Below, in pieces: positions 6,501-28,110 of a stretch of 64,000 bases of DNA. A model generated the notes under the pieces. It did not search any database, was not told the origin of the DNA, and worked only from the letters and a program-made list of their open reading frames with translations. How positions within the stretch are numbered: the first letter of the stretch is position 1; every line of letters begins with the position of its first letter. Made by a program: the position numbers and the translations under genes. The stretch is from a virus. The DNA is taken from positions 1 to 64,000 of the IMG/VR virus record IMGVR_UViG_3300045988_146009. One strand, written 5' to 3'.

Positions 6501-9500
6501 ATGTTCACTTCGGTCATCAAGGCCAACAGGCTGGGATGGTTGAAGAAGGATGCCGATGCTGTGCGTGCCGCCAAGGATATAACCGTAGCCCAGCAAGCCC
6601 GTAGAGAGCGCATAGCCCAAGCCGAAAAGAACTACCAGACGAAGGTAGGACGAGGAGGCATGAAGAATGGGGTATGGACTTCTCCTGGAACGGTATGGCT
6701 TGAGCGTGATGCGGCCATGCGTGCGGAGAAGAACCGGATGGAAACGGTATACGCCATGAAGAGGAATGAAGCCCGTAAGGAACTTCTCAAATATCCTTTT
6801 GGTGCCCGCCTGCTCAATGTGCTGGACGACAACCGAAGAGCTATTGCTACCATGGAAGCTAACCTGATGCAGAGAAGGGGTGCTATCGGACTCGGAACAA
6901 AGGTGAGGGACTTTACCTACCTCTCCCGAACGTTTGCCGCGGTAGGAAAGGAGTCCATCAACTTCCGTAAGGCCATGATGGAACTACTGGACAGCAACGG
7001 CGAAGTGAAGCCGGAGTTTACCCACCTTGTAGGTATCCTAAACAATGCAATCCAAAGCTACATGAGAGAAAACATCTCCCGTTACAACCGGGGTATTTCG
7101 GAAACCCTCGACAACATGCTTGCTATGAGCAAGGTAGCTGATGAACTTGGTCTGGACGGTAGTGAATACCTTGGCTTCAAGGGAAAGGATGTATGGAAGA
7201 ATGTAAGTGAATACCTGACGAAGGACCCGGCCCTGGCTGAGAGTGCTCTAAACACAATCAACAATGGTCACTGGAACGAGATTGCCAAGATGAAGGATGG
7301 CTCGGTTGAACTCCGTCTCATTATCAACAAGGCGAGCCAGCTAGATAACCTGCTCTCCTCTGCTGATGTTGGGGAGAAGAGCCGACTCCGTAGCAAGATG
7401 CGTAAGGCGAAGGCGGACCTGATGAACAAGGCGGCGGAAGACTATGTGCTTTCCAGTATGGGAGTAACCGATACTGACCTCCGCTCCTTCCTCCTCGGTC
7501 TAAATTCTCCGGAACAAATCACGGAAGCATTCAAATCAACTCCCTACCTGGACTCAAGTGTAATCTCCAACCTGATGGGAACGGATGAAAACCTCCGAAC
7601 CCGCATCAGCAACACCATGGATTATGTGAGAAAGTCCACCGCTATTGAAATGCAGAAGCAGGGGGTAAACCTGACCGCTAACCAGCGGGACATGTCCCTT
7701 CTTGCTGATGGTGAAGTAGCGGATGCCCTGATAGCTACCGCTCGGAATGTGTTCAAGGAGACCCTATCCAAGGAGCGTAACGAAGAAAACATCTTCGCCA
7801 ACCGTAAGAACCTGATGGATAGTGAACTTCAAATTCTTGGAGTTCGCGGGTTCAGTAATCTCACGGATGCCTTCGGTGTTATTCAAAACACCTTGTCCTC
7901 CCAGGGCAGAGCCTATGTCAACCAAGTAATTACGCATGACGTAGCAAGAAGCCTTGAAAGGCATGGGGTTGTTACCGGGGAGAGGACGAAGGAGAATACC
8001 CACCTGCTGGAATTCCAGAACAAGGCCAACCCGCTGAACGGAATGTATGCCGAAAGGGACATCGCCCTTGTCCTCTACCAAGCCATGCGACCTGACGAAG
8101 CAATTATGCGGGGTAAGGAATTTGGGAAGAAGTTGCAGAGCCATTGGGGTAACAACTGGGGAATGCTGAGAAGCATCGGTGGGTTTGTCTCCATGTTGAC
8201 CCTGGTCCGTACTCCCTCCGCTACCCTCCGTAACATGGCGGGGACCATGGGGCAAAGCCTGAACGCAGGTGCTCTCCCGTTTGACAAGGGGGTTATCAAG
8301 GGATATGGGGAAGTGTACCAGCTTGCCCAGGACTTCGTTGTTGCAAACATTCTAAGTGCCGCGGGTTCCGTTGGTGTGAGGGGTGCAGTGAACAGTGAGA
8401 TTATGGCGAACGCTGAGAAGCGATTCAACCAGTCCATGCAGAGGTATCGTGACCTTGGTCTGCTCGACGCGGGCGCGGCGAACTTCATGAAGGAACAGTG
8501 GAAGCAGGGGCTTAATGAAATGAGCCAGAAAGAGGGCAGTGAAATCAGCTTGCCCGACGAGGACGCAATGTTCTCTTCGCTCGTATCGGAACTAGGAGAC
8601 CGGAGCACTGCAAAGAAAGCGATGGACCTCGCCAAGCGCATTGCGTATGGTACGTTCGTTTCGCCTATGAGCGTTGCCGCTTCTGCTTACTCCGTCCCTG
8701 ACGTTATCGCCAAGATAATCCTCTTCAATGGGGAGAGCCACAAGGTAAGCAAGGTAGTGAAAGCCGAGCTCGCACAAGCTGAGAAGCTGAGTAGAGCAGG
8801 AAAGGAAGACAAGCTGACAAGCTACATGAAGGACGCTTTGGCCGCTAAGAAGGAAGGGACTCTTACTTCCTACATTGAACGTAGGGCGGCGGACAGGACG
8901 AAGAACCTTCTTCCCACGGGGGCAAGAACCCCTGACTGGGTGAATAAGGTAAGCATCTTTGGGATGCCCTTCTTCTCCTTCATGTACCACACTTGGCAGA
9001 GTGTACCTTACAGCATTGGCTACGGGATGGAAGAACTTCGCGCCGCAAGGTTTGCAACCAATACGGCAGATAAAGTCTCCCTCTACATGGATGCCACCCA
9101 AAAGTTTGGAGGTGCTATCCTGGGCCAGTATGCTATGATGGAACTGATGCGGTTTGCCCTTCCGATTGTTACTCAAGCAATCATGGGTATGGTCACGGGT
9201 GATGACGAAGAAGACAAGATGCAGATGCTCGAAGCAAGTTCGTTTACCCGTTGGCTTGCACGGAATGCTGGACTCTCCGCGGACTACGACCAGAACGGAG
9301 AACTCTTTTTCTGGTTTGACAAGGATAATGAAACCTTCATAGTCCAGGATGGTCAGTACCTTCTGCCATATAAGAGCCTTGGTGAAACCCTGGGTGCTAT
9401 TATCAACCTCGCTGGATTGAATCCTTTCTCTGACAAGAGTGAGGCTAACCAATTCGAGGATGACTACACCGCCCAGCTTCTGGATTATGTTCAGAGCACG

Positions 9501-10361
9501 GCTGGTTCTCCCTCCATGTGGATTCAAATGCTCATTGATATGGGTTCAAAGGAACCCCGTCAAAGCGCAGACCTGAAACAACTGGGTGGGGTATCAGCAA
9601 TCCCGGAAGCCTTTGGGAATGCCCTGCTCATGAGCTTAGGACTCCGCCCTTCTGCTGAACTTGCGGGAGGTAGGACGCTCGACTGGATGGAAAGGATAGC
9701 TACGACTGTAAAGGATAACCTCCCCCTATGGCCTACTCTGGTTCAGGGGGTGCAGACCTGGACAGGGATGAATCCGGATAGTGAAAAGGCAGGATGGTTG
9801 TTGAAGAACCTTGGCTTTGGTGTTCGTCGTCCCAAGAATATTAATGATGTCCTCCGGGACAGTCTTGCTAAAGGTAACAAGGACCTCTCCAATTCGTTGA
9901 AGAACCAGCGCATCATGGATACCAACCTTTACACGGCTGACCTTAGCGATGCAGAGTATGACAAGATTATCGAAGCTGATAAGGCTATGGTAATTGAGCA
10001 GAGTATTTCCCTCGCTAATAGGTTCCTGGCGTTGAAGGGGTTCCTCAAGGGGATGGGAGTCAAGGACGTTGACACGGTTCTTGAAGCATCTGCTCAGGAG
10101 GCGGGCATATCGTTGAAGGCTATGGATGACCTTATCTCTGGCCGGGCCAAAGACTTCATCTCTAACCAGAGGTTTGACAAGATTGAAGAGACGAGAGACC
10201 GCTTGCTTAACAGGCCCGGTATTACTCCGGAAGCTAAGAAAGCCATCCTCCGCCAGTTCCAACAAGCTGAGAAGGTGTATGACATCGACGCAGTAGATAT
10301 TACTTCCAGCTTGATTGAGCCGGATAATGTGGAGCAGGAGGTGAAGAGCCAGAAGAGATAG
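507..10361 (+). CDS. Giant virion-associated/ejected protein (3284 aa; probable true start at 591). It has an internal HExxH zincin-like motif and long Ala/Glu/Gln/Lys-rich helical regions. Candidate polyvalent/cargo protein.
   Basis: Uninterrupted 9.85-kb ORF. The motif LLHELTHVLDNH is at nt 5136..5150. No DxDGD or NADFDGD RNAP motif was found by eye. Every antisense ORF over this interval is shorter (longest 516 aa at 3588..5138) and treated as artefact. Confidence 0.85.
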   Translation: MVQKGHSLYGLCPFLFTREGLTNILYASMPNDTNQEPLTYRSFGPKNPQTEYYKQLGREQSQTRWQEGRQARAQEAQQTPLSEEAKFLDTLNKTFKQEEEASYTQEQRAYTQEQRAISAEDRGIRKEEKEESKKEKQASKRDKQIRDWLSGINTRTPGKSLGFSTEAEYEDYLTKTKPETLVDITKFKANDPEEIGRARSAVEEMGASLVLSGEHPQVAEGSFRSLEPQDKANRLLSKSKYGLTKTEDGSYVVDERFLARVNDPSTAGMGNENIARAIVNNLKSIISKEDERGRSDYLIPDVEEVTNLVRNARAKNRETYQEYEKIRERFAVPKGEEEQKAVAPEKVGEQNGGDSSRTQPTLVQHVLSEVDRFFTVNPEAMEYLNTLGAKTGEEIPGAIEDQKFREQARRGIELKDQLARAISEANPAIDLRTVRNELDDDALLYREAVSQFYGGEIPEEVSSAILNRTTQLAQQRQALVASDYAKAEKDAIAEHLKSLGLDEGVALSIGISGLTNRHIAESDTGMGTMRSAVNEALQQYQSGAGQLAASMSFGEQKGYRDPLSHMQWVNIGDGKIAYAFVDPGTNERVGNGFIVDFGNVDQQAKALGVSREAYLDNLALPFKMGNLNATDEANSLFAWDKLNGKLVENATAESTGGLAYYDNDLIERSVLRAVEAGAPAEVVDKYRENLLQLQKQNAKDMIDQMLGQYEAVANLVASDSKTLDILFPGIRLAMNAMHNDFRDYYAENKGKMTNEEIISSFLADEQNRQGFLAITMAGAKTVARYKAAAIGASQFVSEGSRIIGLGTGDPAKYNNMWENLHKEEQAINTITTRAGGVAEWGAEIGNVLLQIAETTTTGGIGGVSGRVGTMTGRLAKLFGEAVAFKAATPGTMRLGQVITKLGGGVERLVAGPGRAALTQASSRGSSLAISAKLFTDAAAPTFGEVSNATYNEEMARLAKDPATAGLPESVRMEMAQNVATTKGSIAGIGYGIFSTILNNRAGFNRMIRKATGATTKAPGIFGKLESSLEGPGIFNLKGLPGKEKAISIAKQVGRLSASAVEGGTEELADEALQWAWQTLTQHGEIREEDIASERDVWDAASKIFILGAIGGEVGHGIQAMTALPAEVSNRRDQAIQAQQLYGEAMRDALDSDVEGANTALIEALKEGLEKSSAIADAAITSKEAAMSVARNGHIQADENVINEWSSMISQLPDGASVQLNNFSAEYSRLKRIGDETGAASLHQAFVEDIAASDNLSDTQRQIAGELILQLTQGTPTAEFVEETSTQVVLPEGLEELAAVEVEEAPAPVTEELKPEGDLVEQEVEEEVVQIGERDYGYNAPNPVPFVQMLSDWYTSETPITPEIRGEMNSVLTDLELEDPDIYDFITDGKEEVDRATVRRLLTVANLTGPDGPIAVDMKGNTEIQKGNALLTDKTVWSKYDKNVEIQDSNWAADVFNMVGEGMQPIQNVLDDVLNTVQDERTRNNIKDIVEFLEERGVPVSVATIQGDSNIAGLTMMDPSSPEQHIALNFSAKNVKSSPADVLLHELTHVLDNHLRETDPLYAERVASIEEIVRSNWANIQKEAERVARTAVTEEEQAEIDQFIAEMEQALFNKQTEFEGGREFLPNVITNPIMGEVIAQGNLPFDQALDQWASPNNLARISQIGRGKVSRIVHNLINAVSSILKGAQVVEGKVNPNTAVIRVEEGTLADPTRMKIVSPKLAEYKPGVEDENVFITDRGVDAALFSSSENFVGAGKRLFRTANVKGGFTADKRTGKKVKEFAGNFQTYVNELVARNERTKRYVTQQTKGMEDSERATVINSIVNYTGDLGNTLDPKVTRRIFAETNNKVEQARVAREAEVDAANNEYAKFIADRRKAIIQAEARVNALAGTQALQNVGVAITQAVQVAKEVPQVDEKNPMAVAAARFRKAQEELNPVMKEIYSTLDEDAKAEMNEAYDKTMKAIAEDLAQDFDNPAEIVPGLLSIGGLQNVPSVDDLSAMFTSVIKANRLGWLKKDADAVRAAKDITVAQQARRERIAQAEKNYQTKVGRGGMKNGVWTSPGTVWLERDAAMRAEKNRMETVYAMKRNEARKELLKYPFGARLLNVLDDNRRAIATMEANLMQRRGAIGLGTKVRDFTYLSRTFAAVGKESINFRKAMMELLDSNGEVKPEFTHLVGILNNAIQSYMRENISRYNRGISETLDNMLAMSKVADELGLDGSEYLGFKGKDVWKNVSEYLTKDPALAESALNTINNGHWNEIAKMKDGSVELRLIINKASQLDNLLSSADVGEKSRLRSKMRKAKADLMNKAAEDYVLSSMGVTDTDLRSFLLGLNSPEQITEAFKSTPYLDSSVISNLMGTDENLRTRISNTMDYVRKSTAIEMQKQGVNLTANQRDMSLLADGEVADALIATARNVFKETLSKERNEENIFANRKNLMDSELQILGVRGFSNLTDAFGVIQNTLSSQGRAYVNQVITHDVARSLERHGVVTGERTKENTHLLEFQNKANPLNGMYAERDIALVLYQAMRPDEAIMRGKEFGKKLQSHWGNNWGMLRSIGGFVSMLTLVRTPSATLRNMAGTMGQSLNAGALPFDKGVIKGYGEVYQLAQDFVVANILSAAGSVGVRGAVNSEIMANAEKRFNQSMQRYRDLGLLDAGAANFMKEQWKQGLNEMSQKEGSEISLPDEDAMFSSLVSELGDRSTAKKAMDLAKRIAYGTFVSPMSVAASAYSVPDVIAKIILFNGESHKVSKVVKAELAQAEKLSRAGKEDKLTSYMKDALAAKKEGTLTSYIERRAADRTKNLLPTGARTPDWVNKVSIFGMPFFSFMYHTWQSVPYSIGYGMEELRAARFATNTADKVSLYMDATQKFGGAILGQYAMMELMRFALPIVTQAIMGMVTGDDEEDKMQMLEASSFTRWLARNAGLSADYDQNGELFFWFDKDNETFIVQDGQYLLPYKSLGETLGAIINLAGLNPFSDKSEANQFEDDYTAQLLDYVQSTAGSPSMWIQMLIDMGSKEPRQSADLKQLGGVSAIPEAFGNALLMSLGLRPSAELAGGRTLDWMERIATTVKDNLPLWPTLVQGVQTWTGMNPDSEKAGWLLKNLGFGVRRPKNINDVLRDSLAKGNKDLSNSLKNQRIMDTNLYTADLSDAEYDKIIEADKAMVIEQSISLANRFLALKGFLKGMGVKDVDTVLEASAQEAGISLKAMDDLISGRAKDFISNQRFDKIEETRDRLLNRPGITPEAKKAILRQFQQAEKVYDIDAVDITSSLIEPDNVEQEVKSQKR
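519..552 (+). terminator. Putative intrinsic terminator hairpin (8-bp stem with one mismatch, T-run)
   Basis: GGGCACAG...CTGTGTCC followed by TTTTCTCTTT. It lies inside the 5' end of the longest version of the giant ORF, which suggests the real start is the ATG at 591. Confidence 0.4.
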
Positions 10362-11159: not shown

Positions 11160-11438
11160 TCAAGGACAAAATTCCGTAGATGGGCAGACGGTGAAAGAGT
11201 TGCGGGGAGAGGGAGGGATAAGTGGAGGTTGTTTCCATTCAAATTTTCCAAAGTAAAGAGAGGTGTGTAGTCCCATCGGAGCAACCTGTTCTTCTGTTCT
11301 GATGAAGAAGGAATCAACGCCACCGCCGTAGAAGATAGGGTTGCTCAAGGGTTCCTGTCTGTTGCTTGGGGTGAAGAGAATGAGTCTTCCCCAATTGTTC
11401 TGGTCCTTTAGTTCGATGATTAATTCGTGATAGTTCAT
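11160..11438 (-). CDS. Hypothetical protein (92 aa)
   Basis: ORF only. Proline-rich C-terminus. First gene of the leftward block. Confidence 0.4.
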   Translation of the reverse strand: MNYHELIIELKDQNNWGRLILFTPSNRQEPLSNPIFYGGGVDSFFIRTEEQVAPMGLHTSLYFGKFEWKQPPLIPPSPRNSFTVCPSTEFCP

Positions 11439-11920
11439 TACTTTGAGGTGGGTAGAATTACTACTTTGAAAAGTTGAAGGTAGTGATGATAGGTGAAAAG
11501 GATTATGTCCATCCAGTCGTCATCCTCCTTGTTGTACAGGGTAATCCTACCATCAGGCTCAACCCGTATCACATCCAAGGTGTTCCCGCAAAGCTCCAGG
11601 GTTGGGGAAGGAACATTTTCGTATGTGCAAAACATAGACTTTGCGAACCCGATGTCGAGTAAGGCCAGTCCCTCGTCGAAAGAAAGGGGAAGAGAAAGGA
11701 TGGGGTCAATCGTCGTGCTGTGAATGTACCCATTAATATTTTCACTGCATCCCTCCTGGAGAAGTTTTTTCCTGCTAGAAAAGAACATAGCTGGGTGGAA
11801 GGACTTCCGTTCACAGGAGAATATCTTCTCGTGGTGGTTCTTGAAAACCAGCTTGCTTGAATCCGTGGTCTCATACAAGGTGTATGGCTTGAGGATTGTT
11901 TCGATAATTGTGTCGCTCAT
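11438..11920 (-). CDS. Hypothetical protein. The ORF track gives 11438..12025, but the likely start is MSDTIIE at 11920.
   Basis: The N-terminal extension of the long ORF covers a terminator hairpin and the GTATGACACAA motif, so an internal start is favoured. Confidence 0.55.
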   Translation of the reverse strand: MSDTIIETILKPYTLYETTDSSKLVFKNHHEKIFSCERKSFHPAMFFSSRKKLLQEGCSENINGYIHSTTIDPILSLPLSFDEGLALLDIGFAKSMFCTYENVPSPTLELCGNTLDVIRVEPDGRITLYNKEDDDWMDIILFTYHHYLQLFKVVILPTSK

Positions 11921-11974
11921 TGTTACTGGACTATAGCAGGGGAGATTAAAATGTAAAGGGTCTCTTGTGTCATA

Positions 11975-12012
11975 CAAAATAAAACCCCAGGAACGCGCCA
12001 ACGTTCCTGGGG
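11975..12012 (-). terminator. Minus-strand intrinsic terminator (11-bp perfect stem) followed by TTTTATTTTGTATGACACAA
   Basis: CCCCAGGAACG-cgccaa-CGTTCCTGGGG. On the minus strand a T-run follows, then the recurring GTATGACACAA motif. Confidence 0.65.
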
Positions 12013-12043
12013 TAGGTGTATTCATGTATTAGCCGCAAAAATT

Positions 12044-12589
12044 TTAGTGTAACAATTCGTCAACTAGTTCGTAGCAATAGGGGGTATAAAGATGGTTGAA
12101 CTCAGGTGAGGTGTTGAGTAAGTGCAGAGGGAAAGGGTTGGGTGGAGCCGATGGATTCATAAACAACTTTACTCTCGGTAGCTCTTTCGTCCCTATGGTA
12201 TAGTAGAGATGGCCATCCCCGCCCTTAAAAACAAATTGATGTCCATCGCAAGTCGGGAGATTAATGAAGTTAGTGGACGAGTTTCCTTGACATACGAGAA
12301 CACCATTAGGGGAGTGCTTGAAGAAAGACATAGCACTTACCAAATCCATGGAAAACAAACTCATAATATGGGGAATATCATTCGTTTCCATTTTAGTAAG
12401 GTCAGACAAGGTGGGATTGATTTCTGTGATTCTAGGAGATGCACAGAGTTGTTTTATACTCATATACGGCATATCGTAGGTGTAATATGCTTCACTTATA
12501 TGAAACAACCTGTCCTCTTTTTCAAACACAATCATTCCCGACTCGCCGTGGTCTAATCGGAAAGGTCCTTTTGGAAATTTAATTTTCAT
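12044..12589 (-). CDS. Hypothetical protein (181 aa)
   Basis: ORF with 4-nt start/stop coupling to its upstream neighbour. Confidence 0.6.
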   Translation of the reverse strand: MKIKFPKGPFRLDHGESGMIVFEKEDRLFHISEAYYTYDMPYMSIKQLCASPRITEINPTLSDLTKMETNDIPHIMSLFSMDLVSAMSFFKHSPNGVLVCQGNSSTNFINLPTCDGHQFVFKGGDGHLYYTIGTKELPRVKLFMNPSAPPNPFPLHLLNTSPEFNHLYTPYCYELVDELLH

Positions 12590-13038: not shown

Positions 13039-13529
13039 GATACTAAATGGAATAAGGTTTTTGTATGTTTGGCCACGGGGAAAGCATTTGCTTCATCATG
13101 CACGGGTTCGAGTACACCTACTTCATTTACAGTCAGGTCCCTCACTTCCCAAAGGAAGCCATCTCTACCCACGTAAACAAAACGATAACGAATATCCTTA
13201 TAGTCTGGTGGCTTAGGTACAGAGTTGGATGCTGGAGCATAGGTATCGTATGCAAAGATTCCTTTATTGGAATTAATGACATCATTCAAGGTCTTGTTAA
13301 AATCCCAGGAAGGTTTCTGTGTGTAGTATTCAATATTCCCGTGAAGGATAGACCAGTAGATATACCCTGTGGAAGTGTCATGTGGTTTCCCAGCTATGAC
13401 TTTAATTACATTCTTTTCCATATCATACTGATATACTACGCTGGGGTTGCCAGTGATATAGAAGGGGCCCAAACTTGCATACATCAATTGAAGGGCACGA
13501 GCTATTTTCCTAGGGTCTTCTCTAGACAT
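13035..13529 (-). CDS. Hypothetical protein (164 aa)
   Basis: ORF, translationally coupled to its neighbours. Confidence 0.6.
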   Translation of the reverse strand: MSREDPRKIARALQLMYASLGPFYITGNPSVVYQYDMEKNVIKVIAGKPHDTSTGYIYWSILHGNIEYYTQKPSWDFNKTLNDVINSNKGIFAYDTYAPASNSVPKPPDYKDIRYRFVYVGRDGFLWEVRDLTVNEVGVLEPVHDEANAFPVAKHTKTLFHLVS

Positions 13530-14040
13530 TGTGGCTGGAATAAATTTGAGTTGAAGCGGGCGAAGCGTTCGTATCGTCCTCCATCAGTTTGATTTTATTT
13601 ACTAGAGCGGTGAGGTCACGTCGTACATTTCGGAATTCCTGGCTGATATTAATCGTGTCACTCTCCATATCGAGATACATGGCGTGAACCATGCGAATAA
13701 TAATCAGGTCCTCCGCTCGCTTGTCAATAGAAGGGGAAGCCATTGAGCGGAGGAACCGAGCCATGTTCATCATGAACTTTGAATTGCTCTTGATTCCCTG
13801 CCAGTGGTTCATGAAATCGTTCAGGTAGAATAGGGCCTTGCTCACATCTTCCCTACGCTTACGTTGTCCACCCTTGAGTCCACTCCGCCAGAGATACTTG
13901 ATGCAGTTGCCCATATCAAAGGGAAGGTAACGGGTAAGCTCAATACATTCCATGCCCGAGGGGTGGGAAGTGTAGTGGCTGGGATGGTTAACGATAGACT
14001 GGTTGTCAAGGATAGATTCGATTACGTCTTTTTGATTCAT
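13522..14040 (-). CDS. Phage DUF3310-like protein (VNHPSHYT...ECIE...GNCIKYLWR motifs) with a C-terminal extension
   Basis: N-terminal motifs IVNHPSHYTSHPSGMECIELTRYLPFDMGNCIKYLWRSGLKGG match the conserved phage HPSHY family, as recalled from memory. Confidence 0.6.
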   Translation of the reverse strand: MNQKDVIESILDNQSIVNHPSHYTSHPSGMECIELTRYLPFDMGNCIKYLWRSGLKGGQRKRREDVSKALFYLNDFMNHWQGIKSNSKFMMNMARFLRSMASPSIDKRAEDLIIIRMVHAMYLDMESDTINISQEFRNVRRDLTALVNKIKLMEDDTNASPASTQIYSSHNV

Positions 14041-14071: not shown

Positions 14072-14278
14072 TTAGTCGTGAATTCCGAGGGCTTCTCCGA
14101 TTAGGCAGGAGTAGACCCCCATGAATAAAAGGAGACAGAAGGACATCTGATTATAGGGGAGGTCTCCCGAACAGGCATCCATTAATGTTAGGGATGTGCC
14201 CGTTAAGAGAAGGATATGTAGGGTTTTAGCCATTAACGTAGTTGTCAATATCTTCCTGGATAGCCCAGGCTTCCTCAT
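14072..14278 (-). CDS. Possible small hydrophobic protein (68 aa)
   Basis: ORF with a hydrophobic core. It overlaps the next gene by 53 nt. Confidence 0.25.
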   Translation of the reverse strand: MRKPGLSRKILTTTLMAKTLHILLLTGTSLTLMDACSGDLPYNQMSFCLLLFMGVYSCLIGEALGIHD

Positions 14279-14534
14279 AACAATGGATTTGAATCTTGCA
14301 AAGCTTCTTGAACGCGAAGAACGCTAAGACCAAATAGAGCGCATAGGCCGAGACGAACGTTACGTAAGGGATGAAGTTCTTAGGGGTCATAACGAGTATA
14401 AAAAACGCTACGATGAAGACGGCAACATCCAGGAGAACCAGCATGGACATCCAGTCTCCAATTTTACGTGCTCTCATTTCGTGTTGTTCCTTGAGCTTTA
14501 CTTTGTTGTCAATGATTGATTGGTTGGTTGTCAT
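14226..14534 (-). CDS. Small integral membrane protein (two predicted TM helices)
   Basis: Hydrophobic stretches MSMLVLLDVAVFIVAFFILVM and YVTFVSAYALYLVLAFFAF. Confidence 0.55.
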   Translation of the reverse strand: MTTNQSIIDNKVKLKEQHEMRARKIGDWMSMLVLLDVAVFIVAFFILVMTPKNFIPYVTFVSAYALYLVLAFFAFKKLCKIQIHCYEEAWAIQEDIDNYVNG

Positions 14535-14870: not shown

Positions 14871-15230
14871 CTAATCATCATTCAATTCTTTTGTTATGAT
14901 GTCAATGATTGTTTTGCAGTCAGACAATAGTGCTTTCTTTTCATCAGCCATTTCCTTGGGGACCTGCGTACCCCGGACCTTGGCTTCGAGACTAGTAACC
15001 CTGTCGAGTATGGAACGAAGGGATTTGATTGCCGCAGGAGTGTCCAGGTTGGCCTTCCACATTTGCTCAGTCTCTGCTATCTTAATGACATAGATGAACA
15101 GGTCAGACCGGAGGGTGTAGAAATACCGGGCTTGGTTGGCTTGGGATATTACTTCTTCAAGATGGTCCGCATGAAGAGGGCCGGAAAGAAGAACGGCTAT
15201 AGCTGAGATTAGTAGGGTTGGTTTTTTCAT
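14871..15230 (-). CDS. Secreted/periplasmic protein with an N-terminal signal peptide
   Basis: MKKPTLLISAIAVLLSGPLHA, then a helical, charged body. Confidence 0.55.
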   Translation of the reverse strand: MKKPTLLISAIAVLLSGPLHADHLEEVISQANQARYFYTLRSDLFIYVIKIAETEQMWKANLDTPAAIKSLRSILDRVTSLEAKVRGTQVPKEMADEKKALLSDCKTIIDIITKELNDD

Positions 15231-15679
15231 TTTCGTAGTACTTTTAAAATGGTTAGTTCGTGGGAGTCAAAGTATGAGGTATTTACGTGGGAACATATTT
15301 CTCCATCAGTGATTTCAGTCCATGCCAACTCATAACCGCGGGCCTTGTCGAGAGCTTCTTCCATTGCTTCTTTGTCTTCCCCAAACTCACTGGGTTTATC
15401 TATATACTCCTTTGGGTTCCGTATTATCTCAAATGCAGTCCATAAGGAATTAGTGATGGTAAAATAACGAAGTTCCTGGTCGAAATCCATCTTTCCAAAT
15501 CCGCTATAGAGAGCAACTACGTAGTTTCCTGGAAGTCCCGCGGCTCTGGCCAGCAGGAAAGTAATCTTCGGTTCGCCAGGAATAGGGGTCTCTTCTACTT
15601 CCTGCTCCTGGCCGGGCTTAAACTGAATGTCCAGTTCAATCATCTTTGAGCAGTGGGGACACGGTATTTGATTTGTCAT
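15227..15679 (-). CDS. Hypothetical protein (150 aa), N-terminal CPHC zinc knuckle
   Basis: ORF with 4-nt coupling to flanking genes. Confidence 0.55.
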   Translation of the reverse strand: MTNQIPCPHCSKMIELDIQFKPGQEQEVEETPIPGEPKITFLLARAAGLPGNYVVALYSGFGKMDFDQELRYFTITNSLWTAFEIIRNPKEYIDKPSEFGEDKEAMEEALDKARGYELAWTEITDGEICSHVNTSYFDSHELTILKVLRK

Positions 15680-16074
15680 TGTGCTTCCTCCTTTTGTTTG
15701 AGTTCTTCCAGGAGAACCTCCTCATTGCCCACCTGTATATTTTGAGTGTTCAGGTTGATAATCTTCCTATGCCCATCACCTGTGTAATTTAGTTCAGCCA
15801 GATAGATGTCATGTTCGAATAATTGCCATGCTCTTTTCCTCTTTTCATAGGTTCCAAAGATGTCACTAGGCCAGTTGCCTACATTCTCTCGGTCTTCAAC
15901 AAGAGAGATAGCTTCCTCCAATGTATTCACAACCGTCAGGTATTCTAGTTTAATAATGCGGCCTACCTCTTTGTAGATGACTACACGGAAATAATTACCT
16001 GGGGTACGATAGATTGAAAATGTAAGTTGTGGGTTCATTTCTTGCTCAGTTCGTTGTATATCGTAGGTTTTCAT
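15676..16074 (-). CDS. Member of the tandem paralog family (TFxhYRTP..FRVhIYKE....EEAISLhEDRE..WPSD)
   Basis: Shares an N-terminal ~60-aa domain with the next two genes. ATGA start/stop overlaps link the array. Confidence 0.65.
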   Translation of the reverse strand: MKTYDIQRTEQEMNPQLTFSIYRTPGNYFRVVIYKEVGRIIKLEYLTVVNTLEEAISLVEDRENVGNWPSDIFGTYEKRKRAWQLFEHDIYLAELNYTGDGHRKIINLNTQNIQVGNEEVLLEELKQKEEAQ

Positions 16075-16421
16075 TGGGGTAATTCTTTCTCTATAAATTC
16101 AATAAGCTTGGTAAGTTCGTCAGGGTCTACTCTAGACTGATACAGGTTACATGCAATTTGGTTGTCCGTATTCACATAAAATTCCAGAAGCTCCACATCT
16201 CTGAGTAAACTTCTCCATATGTCTTCCCTTTCATCATCAGATTCATAGCCATCATCCAGCAGGCCCCGATAATCTTCCCTGTGTCTGGCTATCCATAATG
16301 CTTCATCCAAGGTATAGGTTGTTGCCATGTGCTTGACATAGAAGTTCCTACTATCTTCTTTGAAAATAAAAACCCGGAACCTATTGTTAGGGGTTCTATA
16401 AAGGGTGAATGTAACTTTCAT
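16071..16421 (-). CDS. Member of the tandem paralog family
   Basis: MKVTFTLYRTPNNRFRVFIFKE...DEALWIARHREDYRG aligns with the genes at 15676 and 16418. Confidence 0.65.
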   Translation of the reverse strand: MKVTFTLYRTPNNRFRVFIFKEDSRNFYVKHMATTYTLDEALWIARHREDYRGLLDDGYESDDEREDIWRSLLRDVELLEFYVNTDNQIACNLYQSRVDPDELTKLIEFIEKELPQ

Positions 16422-16756
16422 TTTAAAAAGGCATCTGCAATTTGTTTTCTTTGAGTGAGCTTAACCTTCCGATTAGTGAAGCCAAGTCTTTCCTTAAACG
16501 TATATACCGTGGAATAGGCCATCCTGTTTTTGCAGGGGTAATCAACAAGAAGCGTTCCCATTCTTGAAGCATTATCGAAGCCGTCACTCGGCCACTCCTT
16601 GTAAGTATCCCTGTCCTTAATGAGCGAGATGGCCTCCTCGAACGAATCCACATGCGGGACGAGATGGACACAGTTTCGATGGGTAGCCGTCTCTTCGAAC
16701 AAGAAAATACTATAGTACGAATCGTCCATTTCGTACAGTTCAAACGTTATGTGCAT
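16418..16756 (-). CDS. Member of the tandem paralog family
   Basis: MHITFELYEMDDSYYSIFLFEE...FEEAISLIKDRDTYKEWPSDGF aligns with its neighbours. Confidence 0.65.
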   Translation of the reverse strand: MHITFELYEMDDSYYSIFLFEETATHRNCVHLVPHVDSFEEAISLIKDRDTYKEWPSDGFDNASRMGTLLVDYPCKNRMAYSTVYTFKERLGFTNRKVKLTQRKQIADAFLK

Positions 16757-16760
16757 TAGA

Positions 16761-17120
16761 TTAAAGAAGGGGTTTAAGGTGTTTATAAATACTGGAATTA
16801 ACCGCGGCGGGATAAATATGTTTGACTATTTTGGTAAATCCCATTGCTGGTTTAACGCTAGTCTGAACAAGAAACTTTGTACTTCTCCTGGAGTATAACC
16901 TCTGCACATTAGCAGGATAGATTACATCGGGGAGGGTAGTGTTTACGTCAAAGGTAGAGTATAGATTCTTAATGTACGTAACGGCCTCTTCGGGCGAATA
17001 GGTCAGGAGGTATCCTACTATCCTCAAATAACGTAAACTCTCCTGTTGTACTATCACGATATAGCTCTCCTCAGCCGTCAAGAGCAAATCGTAGGTTAAG
17101 TATTTTTCTTCTTTGTTCAT
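16761..17120 (-). CDS. Possible distant member of the same paralog family (119 aa)
   Basis: LTYDLLLTAEESYIVIVQQES...SPEEAVTYIKNL is a weak match to the family pattern. Confidence 0.45.
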   Translation of the reverse strand: MNKEEKYLTYDLLLTAEESYIVIVQQESLRYLRIVGYLLTYSPEEAVTYIKNLYSTFDVNTTLPDVIYPANVQRLYSRRSTKFLVQTSVKPAMGFTKIVKHIYPAAVNSSIYKHLKPLL

Positions 17121-17167
17121 ATGTCTTACTATAGTATGTGATTTTTAAATGTCGAGATTATTTTTTG

Positions 17168-18079
17168 TCATTCTCTTTCAAGAAACTTAATCTCGTCATA
17201 TTTTGATTTGACTTTTTCAAGGAAGGATTTGAGCATAGCTTTTTCTAATTTGGTAGCCGTCCGTGGAAGTCTAAAATGATTCAGGGTTTGTCCTGTATGT
17301 CCTTTCTTTCCAGAGTTCTCGTTAACAAGAGATACCATAACAGGAATACGGGAGGTGTTGCTTACCCTAAAATAGGTGTGTTGGTCAGGTGTCCCGTTAA
17401 TATCTACAAAATTTATATCCTCAATCCTTTTCATAACTTCCTCAAATGTTTTGAAGATACTAATCTCGATGGCTTGAGAATGTGTAGTTGTTTCCCTGTA
17501 GAAAGTGAGAGCATACTTGTCTTCTAGCTGTAGATAATGCACGGAGAAGGTTACATGGATTCCATTATCCTTACGGTTTTCCCTCTCAATAAAAGCCTTG
17601 GTTTCATCATATAGTTCGGTTACTTTCAGCCATTCGTCAAGAGAAGGAGGGCCCTCCCGGTATTCACCTATGAATACTTCGAGTTGTCCTATGTCGCTAA
17701 GACAAAGCTCAACCAGAACATGAAGATTCTTAAAACGAAGGAATTCTTTGGTGGCTTCTATCTCGTCTCCGTATGTACCAAAAGGAATTTTGTTCCTGCT
17801 CTTGCAAAACTTAATGACATAATCCAATTTCCTATGACTCATAACCCCCAAAACTTTGAAGGAATACATGCCGGAAGAAGTCGTCTCTTCGGTTGCTACC
17901 CCCACATACTTTTTTGATTGAGGGTGATAGTACAGGCCAAAGGTAATGTGTTTCAGGTTCTTCATCTTAATTACAGGGGCATTCTTGAAACGATAGTGAG
18001 TTCCTTGGAAAGAATAACGGAGGCCCATGAGAGGCGCATATACTTTGCAAGTTCCGTCAGGAGGTTGAGGCTCAAACAA
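17168..18079 (-). CDS. Protein with two internal copies of the paralog domain (303 aa in the ORF track; the true start is probably internal, near 17965 or 18028)
   Basis: HITFGLYYHPQSKKYVGVATEE at aa ~44 and VTFSVHYLQLEDKYALTFYRE...FEEVMKRIED at aa ~190. The long form overlaps the 17971..18552 gene. Confidence 0.55.
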   Translation of the reverse strand: MFEPQPPDGTCKVYAPLMGLRYSFQGTHYRFKNAPVIKMKNLKHITFGLYYHPQSKKYVGVATEETTSSGMYSFKVLGVMSHRKLDYVIKFCKSRNKIPFGTYGDEIEATKEFLRFKNLHVLVELCLSDIGQLEVFIGEYREGPPSLDEWLKVTELYDETKAFIERENRKDNGIHVTFSVHYLQLEDKYALTFYRETTTHSQAIEISIFKTFEEVMKRIEDINFVDINGTPDQHTYFRVSNTSRIPVMVSLVNENSGKKGHTGQTLNHFRLPRTATKLEKAMLKSFLEKVKSKYDEIKFLERE

Positions 18080-18552
18080 GCGGTATTTCCAAGCCGTCTT
18101 TCGGGCTCTACTCCGTTCTTGTCCAGACTGATACTAAGGTGAAGAGCAAGGAAAGCCAGGGCCAGCTTTGGAAGATTCTCACATTCCTTTAGAAGGCTTG
18201 CCACCTGCTTTTTGTCCAACGTTGAATAAGAACTCCTGTTCTCCATGTCAATACCATGGCCGTGAATCTTGGCAAGGTTTTTATTGTAGCAATGCAAGGC
18301 GCGGGTGAATGAAGAGTTGAATACATGGTTCAAGTCCTTCCGGTGTTCACTACAGAACTCAATGGGGTTCTCAACCCGGCACAAAGTAATAGCATCCTGA
18401 ATCAGAAATGCCTTAGAAGTTGCGGGAACCATAAGGCCAAACAATACATTTTCAGGCGTTGTTTTTTCAGTATAGGCCCGTTCAATAAGAGTCTTGCTGG
18501 TTCCTTCTTCGGTAAAGTTGAATTCGTTTTTGGAAATATTATCGTTCATCAT
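17971..18552 (-). CDS. Hypothetical protein (193 aa)
   Basis: ORF only. Confidence 0.55.
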   Translation of the reverse strand: MMNDNISKNEFNFTEEGTSKTLIERAYTEKTTPENVLFGLMVPATSKAFLIQDAITLCRVENPIEFCSEHRKDLNHVFNSSFTRALHCYNKNLAKIHGHGIDMENRSSYSTLDKKQVASLLKECENLPKLALAFLALHLSISLDKNGVEPERRLGNTACLSLNLLTELAKYMRLSWASVILSKELTIVSRMPL

Positions 18553-18711
18553 TTTTATATAGGTTATTAAGTAGGTTAATGTTGCTTTTAGGATTCTGTA
18601 GTTGCAGGATGGATTTTCTAAAAAATAGAATGAGGGCTAGGCTAGCTGGAATCAATACCGCCAGAATGGACATGAATGCTATTAACAGTAGAACCAAGAA
18701 AAGAATCTTCA

Positions 18712-19290
18712 TCATAGAGTTATCTTGCTTGTGTCAAGTTTGTTCTTCAAATAATCCAGTTCACGGGGGGTTAACTTGTTAAATTGGAACACCTTAATTC
18801 TTTGTTCGTCAAGCATAAGAGGCTCTTTATCATTAACAATAAGCCTTCTCTCCTTGTTGAGGGGTTTCCGGGTTATGGTGTTGATTTGTGAAAGAGTCCG
18901 CATAGCCACCCCGAAAGATTGCGCTTGAAAATGCCTGATTATTTTGTAAGTTGTACTATTATAAATCTGGACATACAATTTAGAGTCAGGCAAGCGGTGA
19001 ATGCTGAAACTCTTTTCCGGAGACATAGGCGTAATTTGGTAGTCAATAATTAGGGAATCCCCTTCACGGACTACAAAGCCGTCAGTCAAATTCTCCAGCA
19101 TTAAGTGCGCCATGGAGATAATGCAAGGTACTGGATTGGCAAACCACACTTTCATTTTGTAATGGCAATTATATTCAGTCTTCATCTGCGTGCAACTAGG
19201 ACCATATACCCTCACATCCTTACTACTGAAATAACAGAGGGTTAGAAGTTGAGACTGCCATGCACGAAGGCAGTTCATTTTATTGGTCAT
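18712..19290 (-). CDS. Hypothetical protein (192 aa)
   Basis: ORF only. Confidence 0.55.
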   Translation of the reverse strand: MTNKMNCLRAWQSQLLTLCYFSSKDVRVYGPSCTQMKTEYNCHYKMKVWFANPVPCIISMAHLMLENLTDGFVVREGDSLIIDYQITPMSPEKSFSIHRLPDSKLYVQIYNSTTYKIIRHFQAQSFGVAMRTLSQINTITRKPLNKERRLIVNDKEPLMLDEQRIKVFQFNKLTPRELDYLKNKLDTSKITL

Positions 19291-20247: not shown

Positions 20248-20279
20248 TTCTTTTTGTCTTTCTATTTTTGTTTGTAGTT

Positions 20280-20972
20280 TTAGAGATTGTAGAATTTAAT
20301 ATATTCTTCCCTGCTTTTAAATGTCCTCACCTTCCCCCCGTGACCGTTGTATACGATTGTTTCAATTCCTTCGCCATTCGAACGGTTGTCATAAACATGA
20401 ATAGTAGAGCCGTCTTTTAAAGTAAAAGCCGTAGCAATTCCCTTATACTTAGGGTTTTTACGGGAGACTACACTGCGTGCGAGGTTGTAATTAGTATACA
20501 CACGCCCCATTTTTTGAGGCCACGGGTATGGGGTGCTATCCAGGCTCATAAACACATGGTCCATGCCGTTAGGATAGGAAAAGAAGTCCCATTTTTCCGG
20601 AGCTAGTTCGGCATCCCATTTGACTAGGTGAGTTAGCGAAAATTGGAACTGTGCATAAAACGGAACCAAATCCTCAAAGGCGAAAAGGAAACGTGCTCCC
20701 TGCTCAATAGCGTACTTAACCATTTTTTTACCAAATCCTTTCCCCTGGAATAGGTGAGAGACTATGAGGGAAACAAGTTCCCCCTCCGCGGTTATCGAAA
20801 ATACTCCGACGATGGAGCCGTCATTTACTAGCCTGAAACACTTGCATCCATTATCCCTGTACCAGTCACCGGGGTAAACGTCAACATGTACCTGATTCAT
20901 GTCTGACAGATAATGGCGCAGTTCCCCTGCAAGGCTCTCCATTGCATAAGGATTTATCTTTTCAATATACAT
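20280..20972 (-). CDS. GNAT-family N-acetyltransferase domain fused to a C-terminal domain of unknown function
   Basis: The acetyl-CoA-binding motif Q/R-x-x-G-x-G/A is present as HLFQGKGFGKKMVKYAIEQGARF. The roughly 130-aa C-terminal part is unrecognised. Confidence 0.65.
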   Translation of the reverse strand: MYIEKINPYAMESLAGELRHYLSDMNQVHVDVYPGDWYRDNGCKCFRLVNDGSIVGVFSITAEGELVSLIVSHLFQGKGFGKKMVKYAIEQGARFLFAFEDLVPFYAQFQFSLTHLVKWDAELAPEKWDFFSYPNGMDHVFMSLDSTPYPWPQKMGRVYTNYNLARSVVSRKNPKYKGIATAFTLKDGSTIHVYDNRSNGEGIETIVYNGHGGKVRTFKSREEYIKFYNL

Positions 20973-21065
20973 TTTCTTTTGTCTTTCTGTTTGTTGTGCC
21001 GGACGTTTTGGCCTCCGGCTCGCCTTACATGAACAGTTATACCATAGGAGCAGGGAAAAACAAGA

Positions 21066-21905
21066 CTAATCTTTTTTGTCTTGTGTCATACACCAATTAA
21101 ACGCCGCTTTACCTTGTTCAGAAATGGCCCATGGACTAAAAGAACGGTGGACAATACGGGGGCGGGTAACCACTTCTGCTAGAATACATCCATCTTCTTC
21201 CATGCTTTTATTACAATTGCATGGCATAGGGGTTCCCTTGCATTCTCCTCCCCTGTTTTTACGAATATGGCTCTCATAATCCATTGTTAGTAGCAATTCC
21301 TTTAACTCTTTCATGGCCTTATAATTATGGATAGGGTAAGCCATTCGCAAAGAGGTAGAGCTAAAATTCTCTGACTCTAAATAGATTGTGAGATAAAACT
21401 CCTTATTCTCCGTGTTTTCCGTAACGTGTGCAGTATACACGGCTTCCTCACCCTCCAAAATGTTCACAACGTCAGCCTCATACTCAATATATTGAGTTTC
21501 AGGGAGTTCTTCCGTTTTTGCAGGTTGTTTCGGAGCGTCCTTAATGGGCGTAGCGTACACATCAACCGTTGCACAGGGGAGGCCAAAACAGGGATATTGA
21601 TTAAAAGAATCCTCCGTTCCCTCAATTTCGACAATTACCTTCCATTCAGCGCGGAAATCGTCAAGTTCAGCGCGGTCTTCCTCGCTAAGTTCGCCTTCAT
21701 CATCTCCATACCCCATTAAATAAGGGAATGCCCATTGAGGAACGCCCTCAACCCTTTCGTAACTGTCTGACGTTTCATCCGTTTCAGATAAGATAATGTA
21801 CGTACTTCCGCAATGGGGGCATAGTCCGTTTAGAGGCGTAACGCTTCGGTTATCGCATTCCATGCAGTCATATTTTTCGTTTTCGTCGATAATAACAGTG
21901 CTCAT
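21066..21905 (-). CDS. Hypothetical protein with an N-terminal zinc ribbon (CMEC...CPHC), 279 aa
   Basis: ORF. The conserved 5' leader repeat lies upstream at 21906..21975. Confidence 0.6.
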   Translation of the reverse strand: MSTVIIDENEKYDCMECDNRSVTPLNGLCPHCGSTYIILSETDETSDSYERVEGVPQWAFPYLMGYGDDEGELSEEDRAELDDFRAEWKVIVEIEGTEDSFNQYPCFGLPCATVDVYATPIKDAPKQPAKTEELPETQYIEYEADVVNILEGEEAVYTAHVTENTENKEFYLTIYLESENFSSTSLRMAYPIHNYKAMKELKELLLTMDYESHIRKNRGGECKGTPMPCNCNKSMEEDGCILAEVVTRPRIVHRSFSPWAISEQGKAAFNWCMTQDKKD

Positions 21906-22029
21906 TTTTATGTTTTCTATTTTAGTTTGTTGGTTGGTTGCGGGGTTGTGTTCCCCTTACGCAATCCTTTATATTATATTAGAGGGGAAACGCAAGGGAA
22001 ATGTTCATGCCTTGTGTCATACTTAACTG

Positions 22030-23743: not shown

Positions 23744-23855
23744 TTTTCTATTTTAGTTTTAGGCGGTTGCCTCGTTACGTGTTTCTTTATAACATTTTTG
23801 AGCAGGTAAACAAGGAAAATGTTCATGCCTTGTGTCATACTTCACTGTTAATCAG

Positions 23856-24831: not shown

Positions 24832-24911
24832 TCTTTATAGCATCTTTGAGCAGGGGCACAAGCGTTTTATTTCACGTTTGTGTCATACAAAATTGTTCCA
24901 CGTGGAACTTT

Positions 24912-25604: not shown

Positions 25605-25789
25605 TTATCAATCCCTTTCCTGCTTTTAATCCCTTTCAATTTCTCTCCTAATTCTTTAAGCCGCGCTTCTTCTTCCGTAAGCTTTCGATTCCCCTGCTTA
25701 ATCCCTCGGTTTATGCGCCTAAAATCCTCGGAGAGTTTATCCAGTTTCCGCCTCAACTCTATAAACTGTTCGGTACTGTTAATTGCCAT
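25601..25789 (-). CDS. Small coiled-coil protein (62 aa)
   Basis: ORF with 4-nt coupling to the HNH gene. It is the first gene of the leftward block beside the control region. Confidence 0.4.
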   Translation of the reverse strand: MAINSTEQFIELRRKLDKLSEDFRRINRGIKQGNRKLTEEEARLKELGEKLKGIKSRKGIDK

Positions 25790-25835
25790 GTCTCCTTTAT
25801 ATAGTAGGCACGCCGTTTTTCAAGCTTTTTGTGCG

Positions 25836-25871
25836 CCATTTCCCCGCTTTTCAAGCTTTTTATAGTGTACC
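25836..25871. promoter_or_regulatory. Direct repeat TTTTCAAGCTTTTT x2, 22 bp apart, at the left edge of the control region
   Basis: Read directly. Candidate promoter or operator element for the leftward block. Confidence 0.35.
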
Positions 25872-26199
25872 GCAATTGTTGCGTTAGCCCTAAAAACTGC
25901 ACCATTACTGTTACTTTTGGCTTTCTTTGGACTTTCTCCCGAATTCCTTCGCACAGAAAGGGGCCTATAAGGGCCTTTTGAGCAGGGAGCCTTACTATTA
26001 TACCCGGCGATTTTGCCCGCCCGTATACGCAAACCTCATGCGTTTTATTTTCGCCAATTCCGCACTTTTCGCCCTAAACGTACTAAGTGCACCTAAAATG
26101 GTACATAAATCATCCATTCGTAACGGAAAGAGTACTATTCACTTTTTATACAACTGTATACATTCTGGCATTTCGTACCGTTATAGGTACTGGTTCGTA

Positions 26200-28110
26200 T
26201 CATTTCCGTGCTATACGCCCTAAACGGTCTTCCCGTTCGTGTAGGGAGTAATGGGCATTTCGTCCTTTTCGTTCGTGTAGGGCGTGGAGTCTGCTACGTC
26301 ATTCCGGTCCATGTAGTGCATTCCGTTCACTTCGTTCTTCCGTCCTTCTGGTCCATGTAGTTCGATTAGGGCGTGTAGTGCGTATAGCTCCATCTAGGGC
26401 ATTCCATCCTTTCAGTCCCTATAGTTCGATTAAGGCATTCCGTTCACTTCGTCCTTTAAGTCCGTATAGTGCGTTTAGTGCGTTTAGTGCGTTTAGAGTT
26501 TTACATTTTTGTAAAATATCAACATATCATGATGTGTAAATATGTTGTTTCCTATTGACCCCTTCACTACATATCGGGGCATATAATGGGAGAGACACAC
26601 TATATGTAGTGTTCTCTGCTCTATCAGGCACCAATCATTTTGACGAATATCAAAATGTAAAACTAAAAATTTATACGTTTGAGAGGTTTTGTATAAAGAT
26701 TATATACACTTGTATACAAAGTGAGAGTAAAAGGTATTTGTTTCCCATTGGCACCATACATCATGTAGTGCCTATTGGTTACGGGAACACTACATACAGG
26801 AGTCATGATAACATATCTACATATCATGATATGATGATGTTTTACATTTTTGTAAAACTAAAAGGAGAGAAGCCTCTTCTGTTTCCTATTGACCCCTTTA
26901 TATTTCAGAGCAGGGAAATTCCAACACTCCGGACTTCACGCACTAAACGTCACTTTACGTTCTAAGTCAACACGTTACGCATATCCGCAACCGATTAGGC
27001 ATTACAAACGTTTCTCGAAATTATCTCTTAAAAAACAAATGTTATTTCATAGTACGTATTGATTATTAGGGACTTACGTTTTCAATGTCGTACATAAACG
27101 TAATGATAATATTAGTTCAGAAAGGTACGCTATCGGCGTAGAATACAATAAGCCCCCTGAAAAAGGTACTTGAATCGGTGCATTTCGAGCGTGAAAATCG
27201 CTTAGAACGTGAAGGACACCACGACGGTGACTCCCCCTTCGAGCGTAACGCGCTCATTAGTAAATCATTAGGTCACATTTTTCCGGAAATGGGGTTTCTG
27301 CTTTTTCAAAATGGGCCCCATGCCGAGGGGACACCACGGGTCTCGATTGCCTTTTCCTGCTCCGGCGTGGGCCTAAAATAGGCGAGAGGGGGTACGTATG
27401 GACAGACTGTACGTGAACGGGGGTGTGAGGGGCCTTCTATGGGCCTACGCATAGGTGAGTGCGGTTGAGGTCATTTAGCCCGGAAGGTCCATATTGGGAT
27501 GGAAATTCCTGAACTATTTTCATAACTGCCTCAGTGATAATCATTTTATGGAGCAGGGAAGTCCAAATAATCCGATTGTGTGATGATGTGTATATTTTGA
27601 ATACGAGATAACTTCACTCTCCAGGTTACGCCCTAAATCCTTAATTTTTAATAATATATAAATACTGTGTACTATGTAATATCTAATTACTATATAGAGG
27701 TATAAAAATATTTATTATTTAATATAAAAATAATACCAAAAAAGAAAAGAAGAAAAGACGAAATTGAAAAAGTAAAAAAAAATAATTCTAGGTCTATATG
27801 GGGGAGGGGGGAATAACAACACACACTATGCCCCTTTTTTTCACTGCTTGTATTTACATATTAAAGGGTTATGGTGTGAAAAGACACGTAAATATCGTGA
27901 ATACGCATCTGCACACTTTTTGATACAGTAACACAAGTTTTCACCACGTTATCCCAAATTTATACCTGTTTTAACCCCATTTTGTACATTACCATTATAT
28001 CTTGGGATATTCTGTTATTCTCTAAAAAACACCAAATCGAATCGCCCTACACGCCCTAATCGTACCTAAGCGGACCCTATCGCACTCCACGTTCTCTACG
28101 TCCTCTTCCT
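26200..28110. repeat. Complex non-coding repeat region, candidate replication origin and divergent control region. It holds iteron-like direct repeats, nested inverted repeats and small palindromes.
   Basis: Direct repeats: CGTTCGTGTAGGG x2, GCATTCCGTTCACTTCGT x2, TGCGTTTAG x3 in tandem (26470..26496) with an inverted copy at 26939..26949, and GTTTCCTATTGACCCCTT x2 (26547 and 26881). The palindrome TTTTACATTTTTGTAAAA occurs twice (26499 and 26839). A 16-bp inverted pair CGATTAGGGCGTGTAG (26353..26368) and CTACACGCCCTAATCG (28047..28062) flanks the region. No credible ORF lies anywhere in it. Confidence 0.6.
27641..27795. other. Extreme A+T-rich tract (~155 bp), candidate DNA-unwinding element, followed by the G-tract GGGGGAGGGGGG
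   Basis: Direct reading: taatatataaatactg...aaaaataataccaaaaaagaaaagaagaaaagacgaaattgaaaaagtaaaaaaaaataatt. Confidence 0.5.

Follow-up and report, generated by a model that had tools for sequence, protein, structure and literature searches.

A strain-variable tandem array of small orphan paralogs in a phage of about 73 kb

Introduction

Size-limited phage genomes rarely keep large paralog families, and a locus in the IMG/VR virus record IMGVR_UViG_3300045988_146009 raises the question of what such a family is and why a phage would maintain it. We analysed positions 1 to 64,000 of that record (64,000 nucleotides, hereafter the window, to which all coordinates refer), in which an original prediction, made from the sequence alone, had described at 15676-18079 a tandem array of at least six copies of a ~60-amino-acid domain, spread over four or five adjacent genes. 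The array exists. It consists of six adjacent genes on the minus strand (15227-17965) with six units that have good support and a seventh that is probable, and its gene content differs between closely related strains. The explanation we favour, with a probability of roughly 45%, is a family of non-enzymatic binding modules, each independent of the others, that evolves by birth and death and, by analogy, would act in counter-defence or host takeover.

The array and its members

The predicted extent held for the array as such and erred at both ends, as gA had been overlooked and the TTG at 18079 is an unlikely start for g5. That start is rejected because g5 would then run 109 nucleotides into its upstream neighbour, and ATG 17965, directly (3 nucleotides) after that neighbour's stop at 17971, is the most likely start (265 amino acids). 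The count of at least six copies stood, there being seven units, and the genes number six instead of four or five. The members are listed below with the letters of the gene types defined in the strain comparison.

gA, 15227..15679, minus strand: 150 amino acids, type 'f', found in every strain examined
g1, 15676..16074, minus strand: type 'e', the native 120-amino-acid gene starting at ATG 16038
Deletion scar, 16046..16052, minus strand: 7-nucleotide microhomology GAACTGA, where the start of a lost 111-amino-acid gene was joined to the g1 leader
g2, 16071..16421, minus strand: 116 amino acids, type 'd', the unit modelled by AlphaFold
g3, 16418..16756, minus strand: 112 amino acids, type 'c'
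g4, 16761..17120, minus strand: 119 amino acids, type 'b', divergent, tied to the core via its sister type 'i'
Gap, 17121..17167, minus strand: sole real intergenic gap inside the array, with a sigma-70-like match TCGACA-16-TATAGT
g5 C-terminal unit, 17168..17572, minus strand: residues ~132-265 of the 265-amino-acid protein
g5 N-terminal unit, 17573..17965, minus strand: residues 1-131, fused to the C-terminal unit in every strain
gC, 18712..19290, minus strand: 192 amino acids, with two genes between it and the array, a possible remote relative over residues ~90-143 only

Kinship of g1, g2, g3 and gA is supported by direct sequence tests, and that of g4 and the g5 C-terminal unit by profile-profile tests. 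Formal alignment between members, for which the original prediction had named an E value of 1 as the limit, gave BLASTP values of 9e-14 (g1 against g2), 3e-10 (g1 against g3) and 2e-5 (g2 against g3), with 1e-5 for g1 against gA, and when a hidden Markov model (HMM) of g1-g3 was run against all 717 stop-to-stop open reading frames (ORFs) of the window, g5, gA and g4 ranked next after its own members. A core profile was also built with paralogs from related phages, leaving out gA, g4 and g5. Against this profile gA matched over its full length (E 5.9e-8, HMM positions 2-111; 2.4e-7 over 114 columns by hhalign), and the g5 C-terminal unit matched it by hhalign (1.5e-6 over 113 columns). The gene g4, rightly predicted to be a weaker match, reached 6e-4 alone and 2.4e-7 over 46 columns when combined with type 'i', its 120-amino-acid sister (1e-6 between the two), which is found in strains L002 and L003 and absent from the window. 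The prediction of two copies inside g5 holds firmly for the C-terminal half; the N-terminal half matched an extended profile in register (hhalign P 0.003 over 93 columns) and aligns element by element in two family alignments, and is a probable copy with marginal support.

All four predicted motifs (hTFxLYRTP, FRVhIFKE, EEAISLI-DRE and WPSD) are present. The first 60 residues are the best-conserved part, but the homologous unit is the whole protein of ~112-120 amino acids, not ~60, because alignments and profiles span entire proteins and reach the C-terminal helix. At its start gA departs from this plan, carrying an N-terminal extension of ~35 residues with a single CPHC knuckle before one family unit (residues ~36-149). 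Identity between gene types is 13-51% at the amino acid level. The ATGA overlaps that the original prediction noticed between adjacent genes are present at 16418-16421 (g3/g2), 16071-16074 (g2/g1) and 15676-15679 (g1/gA), and a further one lies at 15227-15230 between gA and the next gene. The outlying gC is possibly related to the family, with a BLASTP value of 0.004 against g1 over 22 residues, an HMM value of 0.11 and hhalign P 0.002-0.003 over 29-53 columns.

A 106-amino-acid ORF with a TTG start lies in another frame inside g3 (16423-16743, minus strand) and is open in L001 and L002 too; its persistence may be chance, the strains being 95-98% identical.

Gene content and recombination between strains

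Contigs L001-L006 from other datasets were compared with the window, and complete arrays were available in five strains (the window and L001-L004). Samples ERZ28574984, SRR23754829, ERR10101783 and ERR11816711 carry the phage. The contigs are collinear with the window, with 92-98% nucleotide identity in the flanks, whereas the arrays differ. Clustering gave 11 gene types, a to k, of which 'a' is the double-unit g5.

Window: a-b-c-d-e-f, 6 genes
L001: a-b-c-d-g-h-e-f, 8 genes
L002: a-i-b-c-d-g-h-j-e-f, 10 genes
L003: a-i-b-c-d-g-k-e-f, 9 genes
L004: a-b-c-d-g-k-e-f, 8 genes

Relatives thus have up to eleven units per array, and the window has lost 651 bp (2 genes) compared with L001 and ~1 kb (3 genes) compared with L002. 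Collinearity in blastn breaks at window 16046/16052, in the 7-nucleotide direct repeat GAACTGA, and the deletion joined codons 1-9 of the missing 'g' gene (MKTYDIQRT) in frame to g1. The 12 extra N-terminal codons of g1 (MKTYDIQRTEQE) are the remnant of that gene and exist because the deletion fused its start in frame; the g1 orthologs in L001 and L002 have 120 amino acids. Other strains carry comparable hybrids, the 'e' gene of L003-L005 beginning with MKLTF, the start of type 'h', and the 'b' gene of L004 with MHEEN, the start of type 'i'. The hybrid N-termini therefore require at least three independent recombination events. These sit at or near conserved gene starts, comprise both microhomology deletion and paralog-paralog recombination, and regenerate an intact gene each time, the array ORFs being intact in at least six strains. 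The highest identity between any two types is 51%. The diversity of gene types is old, and the change seen at present consists of differential loss and shuffling, not of fresh amplification.

This variability bears on the possibility that the paralogs are subunits of one hetero-oligomer, or packaged or ejected internal proteins like the internal proteins of T4. Translational coupling through ATGA overlaps would favour equimolar synthesis, and the covalent fusion of two units in g5, kept in every strain, suggests that units act in pairs. However, 6 to 10 genes among strains that are 92-98% identical are hard to fit to a fixed stoichiometry, and an obligate complex of that kind is disfavoured because copy number is polymorphic; the array is also distant from the terminase and structural module and runs in the opposite direction. 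We consider this arrangement unlikely.

Selection on the array genes

Ratios of nonsynonymous to synonymous substitution rates (dN/dS) were computed by the Nei-Gojobori method for ortholog pairs of the window and each strain. Orthologs are 79-99% identical between strains and most dN/dS values fall at 0.1-0.4, so that the predicted fast divergence applies to the paralogs and to gene content but not to the orthologs, most of which are under purifying selection. Values are ~0.1-0.35 for gA, g1 and g5, 0.05-0.1 for the well-conserved neighbouring genes 17971-18552 and 13522-14040, and 0.3-1.15 for g2, g3 and g4. In three of four comparisons (p 0.03, 0.03 and 7e-6), pooled nonsynonymous to synonymous counts are higher for g2-g4 than for non-array genes of the surrounding block; the comparisons are not independent of each other and involve small counts per gene. 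These values show genuine genes under constraint, the central members evolving under relaxed or diversifying selection, and are no proof of positive selection.

The raised ratio in g2-g4 would fit relaxed constraint, as expected if the array were largely dispensable duplicated orphan DNA drifting to loss, with most copies serving no specific function, and such an account would also accommodate the frequent deletions between strains and the confinement of the family to one narrow lineage. Against it, all copies are intact ORFs in all strains, the deletions are in frame and yield intact hybrid genes, dN/dS is 0.1-0.4 in most orthologs, and paralogs only 13-30% identical keep scaffold residues and a foldable sequence, which implies that purifying selection has acted over a long time in a genome of limited size (~73 kb). 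Junk is disfavoured because of the intact ORFs, in-frame junctions and long-term conservation of the scaffold, and we regard drift to loss as very improbable.

Predicted fold and conserved residues

Modelling of one unit by AlphaFold, as the original prediction had proposed, gave a confident result for g2 from a 10-sequence family alignment (mean predicted local distance difference test score (pLDDT) 87.7, predicted template modelling score 0.81). The topology is β1 β2 β3 α1 α1' α2 β4 β5 α3, with the motif hTFxhY on β1, YxVxhFxE on β2, hEEAhxhh on α1 and ELxxL on the C-terminal helix, and the conserved P-S-D-G-F loop falls in a segment of lower confidence. For g5, with its two units, the model was of low quality overall (pLDDT 55); its C-terminal unit nonetheless has a core at pLDDT 59-88 with the same order as g2 (β β β α α β β α), and its N-terminal unit, at pLDDT <50, is uninformative. 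Only T4 and E22 are invariant or nearly so across all units. The isoelectric point (pI) of the units ranges from 4.4 to 9.2 and the net charge from -11 to +4, most units being acidic and g4 (pI 9.2) and g5C (pI 9.1) basic. The family is one of conserved scaffold and divergent surfaces. A role of the units as DNA mimics was considered and set aside, their charges being mixed and not uniformly strongly negative.

Foldseek searches with the g2 model returned nothing significant in the PDB (E>=0.4) or among the viral models of BFVD (E>=0.06). The protein family is new, and so, probably, is its fold. The nearest likeness is to the RNase H-like fold, known from RuvC, the terminase nuclease and the ATPase subdomain of Hsp70/actin, of which ~60% of the domain aligns with the unit; the second half of the unit differs in forming a β-hairpin, the catalytic carboxylates are missing and the Foldseek match is not significant. 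Neither the five-stranded mixed sheet with β1β2β3-α-β4-α-β5 connectivity nor the set of catalytic carboxylates with its first Asp on β1 is found, the invariant residue on β1 being Thr. An active nuclease, for which there are no catalytic residues, is unlikely because the β4-α-β5 crossover is absent and this Thr replaces the β1 Asp, and enzymes in general are disfavoured because catalytic residues are missing. The partial βββα core could still suggest nucleic-acid-binding regulators or inactivated proteins of nuclease fold, and the basic units g4 and g5C would suit such a role. The targets would then be DNA or RNA and not proteins, with the units serving, for instance, to modulate transcription or replication. 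The β4/β5 hairpin in place of a β-α-β crossover, the Thr at the catalytic position and the acidity of most units speak against it, and we think it improbable.

Distribution in sequence databases

The family's lack of assignment, part of the original prediction, was borne out, with no family match for array members in Pfam, PHROG, NCBIfam, PADLOC or PDB sequence searches. The Pfam family PF23128 (YbjQ_4) was considered and rejected; it matched only two g3 orthologs of 17 units, at 16.1 bits (E 0.014) against a gathering threshold of 27 bits. The proposed HMM search of metagenomic proteins was also carried out. When 1.84 billion representative proteins were scanned exhaustively with HMMER (E<=1e-3), there were 13 hits, 11 of them clusters from the same phage lineage and two that are artefacts, being long repetitive proteins whose scores were summed over repeats. 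A word-indexed search of 5.8e9 proteins with two alignments returned same-lineage proteins only, and no relative of the family was found in IMG/VR, JGI metagenomes or GTDB genomes. The array encodes a lineage-restricted orphan family.

Searches directed at function were likewise negative. No similarity to known anti-CRISPR (Acr), Ocr, Ard or other characterised anti-defence proteins was found by sequence or fold, and no defence-related genes were found in the neighbourhood. The best match to Imm families had E 0.78 and involved one member only, and beside the array there is no toxin gene or toxin C-terminal cassette, the neighbours being orphan, signal-peptide and small membrane proteins. Nothing specific on comparable phage paralog arrays was found in the literature.

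The phage and its leftward gene block

The window covers most of a phage genome of ~73 kb, a near-identical contig having 72,871 bp. Genes for a primase-helicase, a family-A DNA polymerase, a helicase and the large terminase lie on the plus strand. No megablast match for the region was obtained among 50,697 GenBank phages, tblastn with the large terminase gave no match, and identity of the DNA polymerase to those of GenBank phages does not exceed 24.7%; judged by sequence, this uncultivated phage is far from any cultured one. The array, ~4% of the genome and all of one orphan family, lies entirely on the minus strand within a block of ~35 small, mostly orphan, co-directional genes that runs from ~25604 down to 11438, whereas the replication and structural genes point the other way. 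A GNAT protein, an HNH protein and a very acidic DUF6926 protein are encoded in the block around the array.

A repeated element lies upstream of the array and shares its orientation, with at least three exact copies (21048-21091, 23785-23840 and 24833-24888, minus strand) and two variants near 21990-22020 and ~26000. The element consists of GTATGACACAA, a hairpin whose stem covaries between copies, CC(C)TGCTC and TATAAAG, and zero matches are expected by chance. From their sequence, these elements are candidate phage-specific promoters of the leftward block. Either these elements or the promoter-like site in the gap at 17121-17167, whose leader also precedes type 'i' in L002, would drive transcription of the array; sigma-70-like matches in the region number 31 against 35.9 expected, and the gap site is not distinguishable from chance. 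Early expression of the array is plausible from its position only. At the far end, a strong intrinsic-terminator-like hairpin (11984-12013, minus strand; a 13 bp stem with 8 GC pairs, and a T-run) lies just after gene 12044-12589 and probably ends a leftward transcript, so that ORF 11438-12025 would start later.

Several further observations concern the surroundings. At the other end of the block, a long non-coding stretch (25605-26554, read on the minus strand) with many short direct repeats (CGCACTAAA and units of the GGACGAA/GGAATGC type) separates it from the rightward replication genes and could be an origin or regulatory region. The DUF6926 protein (279 amino acids; 21066-21905, minus strand) is extremely acidic (pI 4.4, net charge ~-30), a candidate DNA-mimic-like accessory protein, and its gene adjoins that of the GNAT acetyltransferase (20280-20972). 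Flanking the array, the genes 14871-15230, 18539-18715 and 14226-14534 (all minus strand) encode one protein whose N-terminus, MKKPTLLISAIAVLLSGPLHA, resembles a signal peptide and two small proteins that contain hydrophobic, membrane-like stretches, and could serve envelope-directed accessory functions. An ORF of 3,284 amino acids at 507-10361 (plus strand), conserved in relatives at 3,140-3,284 amino acids, has no PHROG or Pfam match and may code for a giant protein that belongs to the virion or is ejected. No tRNAs were found in the window. Start codons follow A-rich leaders without a Shine-Dalgarno sequence, for example in the intergenic stretches 20248-20279, 20973-21065 and 21906-22029; we take these to recall the translation signals of Bacteroidota, a hint to the host.

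Proposed function

The family of binding modules that we favour would comprise small (~115 amino acids), soluble, non-enzymatic α/β proteins specific to the lineage, produced from a translationally coupled operon in the leftward accessory block and probably expressed early. All units keep one hydrophobic scaffold while their surfaces have completely diverged, and each would independently bind a different host or competitor protein. About a dozen old, diverged gene types persist, disappear or recombine through unequal or microhomology-mediated exchange at gene starts, leaving each strain with its own subset, and this strain-specific repertoire may track the host strains met. We infer the early expression, the binding function and the role in host interaction or counter-defence, the last being the most parsimonious view and resting on analogy with accessory islands in phages, multigene families in viruses and arrays of immunity proteins in bacteria.

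Several points weigh against the binding-module explanation. The g2 model depends on an alignment of ten sequences. Never clearly above 1 (maximum 1.15, from ~30 changes), dN/dS could reflect relaxed constraint instead of diversifying selection. No similarity to a characterised anti-defence, takeover or immunity protein was found, nor a structural neighbour that would suggest a ligand. Finally, there are no near-identical copies, the maximum identity being 51%, and what is seen is loss and shuffling, not ongoing amplification.

A more specific and rather doubtful version holds that a single new fold has expanded within one lineage into about a dozen strain-specific inhibitors, each directed at a different defence or takeover target and reshuffled at conserved 5' ends. 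Such an inhibitor repertoire would be a phage counterpart of the multigene host-range families of eukaryotic viruses, an 'anti-defence library' on one scaffold. If the units are target-specific inhibitors, the array would offer a one-scaffold set of different specificities suited to studying how the specificity of counter-defence evolves, a fold new to structural biology, and a clear phage example of birth-and-death and unequal-recombination dynamics. Should the units be dispensable, the array would be a case study in orphan-gene persistence.

Comparison with known systems

Phage anti-defence islands and early accessory clusters, such as Acr loci, T7 0.3/Ocr, and the internal proteins and hypervariable regions of T4, resemble the array in their small orphan genes, co-directional accessory block, high strain variability and lack of enzymatic motifs. 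Known islands, however, are mosaics of unrelated genes, whereas the array is one family expanded about twelve-fold, with no adjacent regulator of the Aca (anti-CRISPR-associated) helix-turn-helix type and no Acr, Ocr or Ard similarity. Bacterial polymorphic-toxin and contact-dependent inhibition loci contain arrays of immunity proteins (Imm, SUKH, orphan CdiI), each thought to bind a different partner. They share with the phage array tandem, small, soluble, diverged paralogs on a common scaffold and a content that varies between strains; the present genes differ in being phage-encoded, in having no adjacent toxin gene and in not belonging to Imm families.

Viral multigene families with copy-number turnover are known from poxviruses, with their 'genomic accordions' (K3L), and from African swine fever virus (multigene families MGF360/505). 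Like the array, these consist of paralogs that lie in tandem in the accessory part of a DNA virus genome and have a presumed role in host interaction, their copy number differs between close strains (here 6, 8, 10, 9 and 8), and hybrid genes arise by recombination between paralogs. Genomic accordions, however, are recent near-identical amplifications in eukaryotic viruses with larger genomes, whereas the paralogs of the array are old (<=51% identity), show only contraction and shuffling, and have no kinship with those families in sequence or fold. Accessory paralog families that vary between strains are, as a kind, known from viruses, though one of this scale is unusual in a phage of 73 kb.

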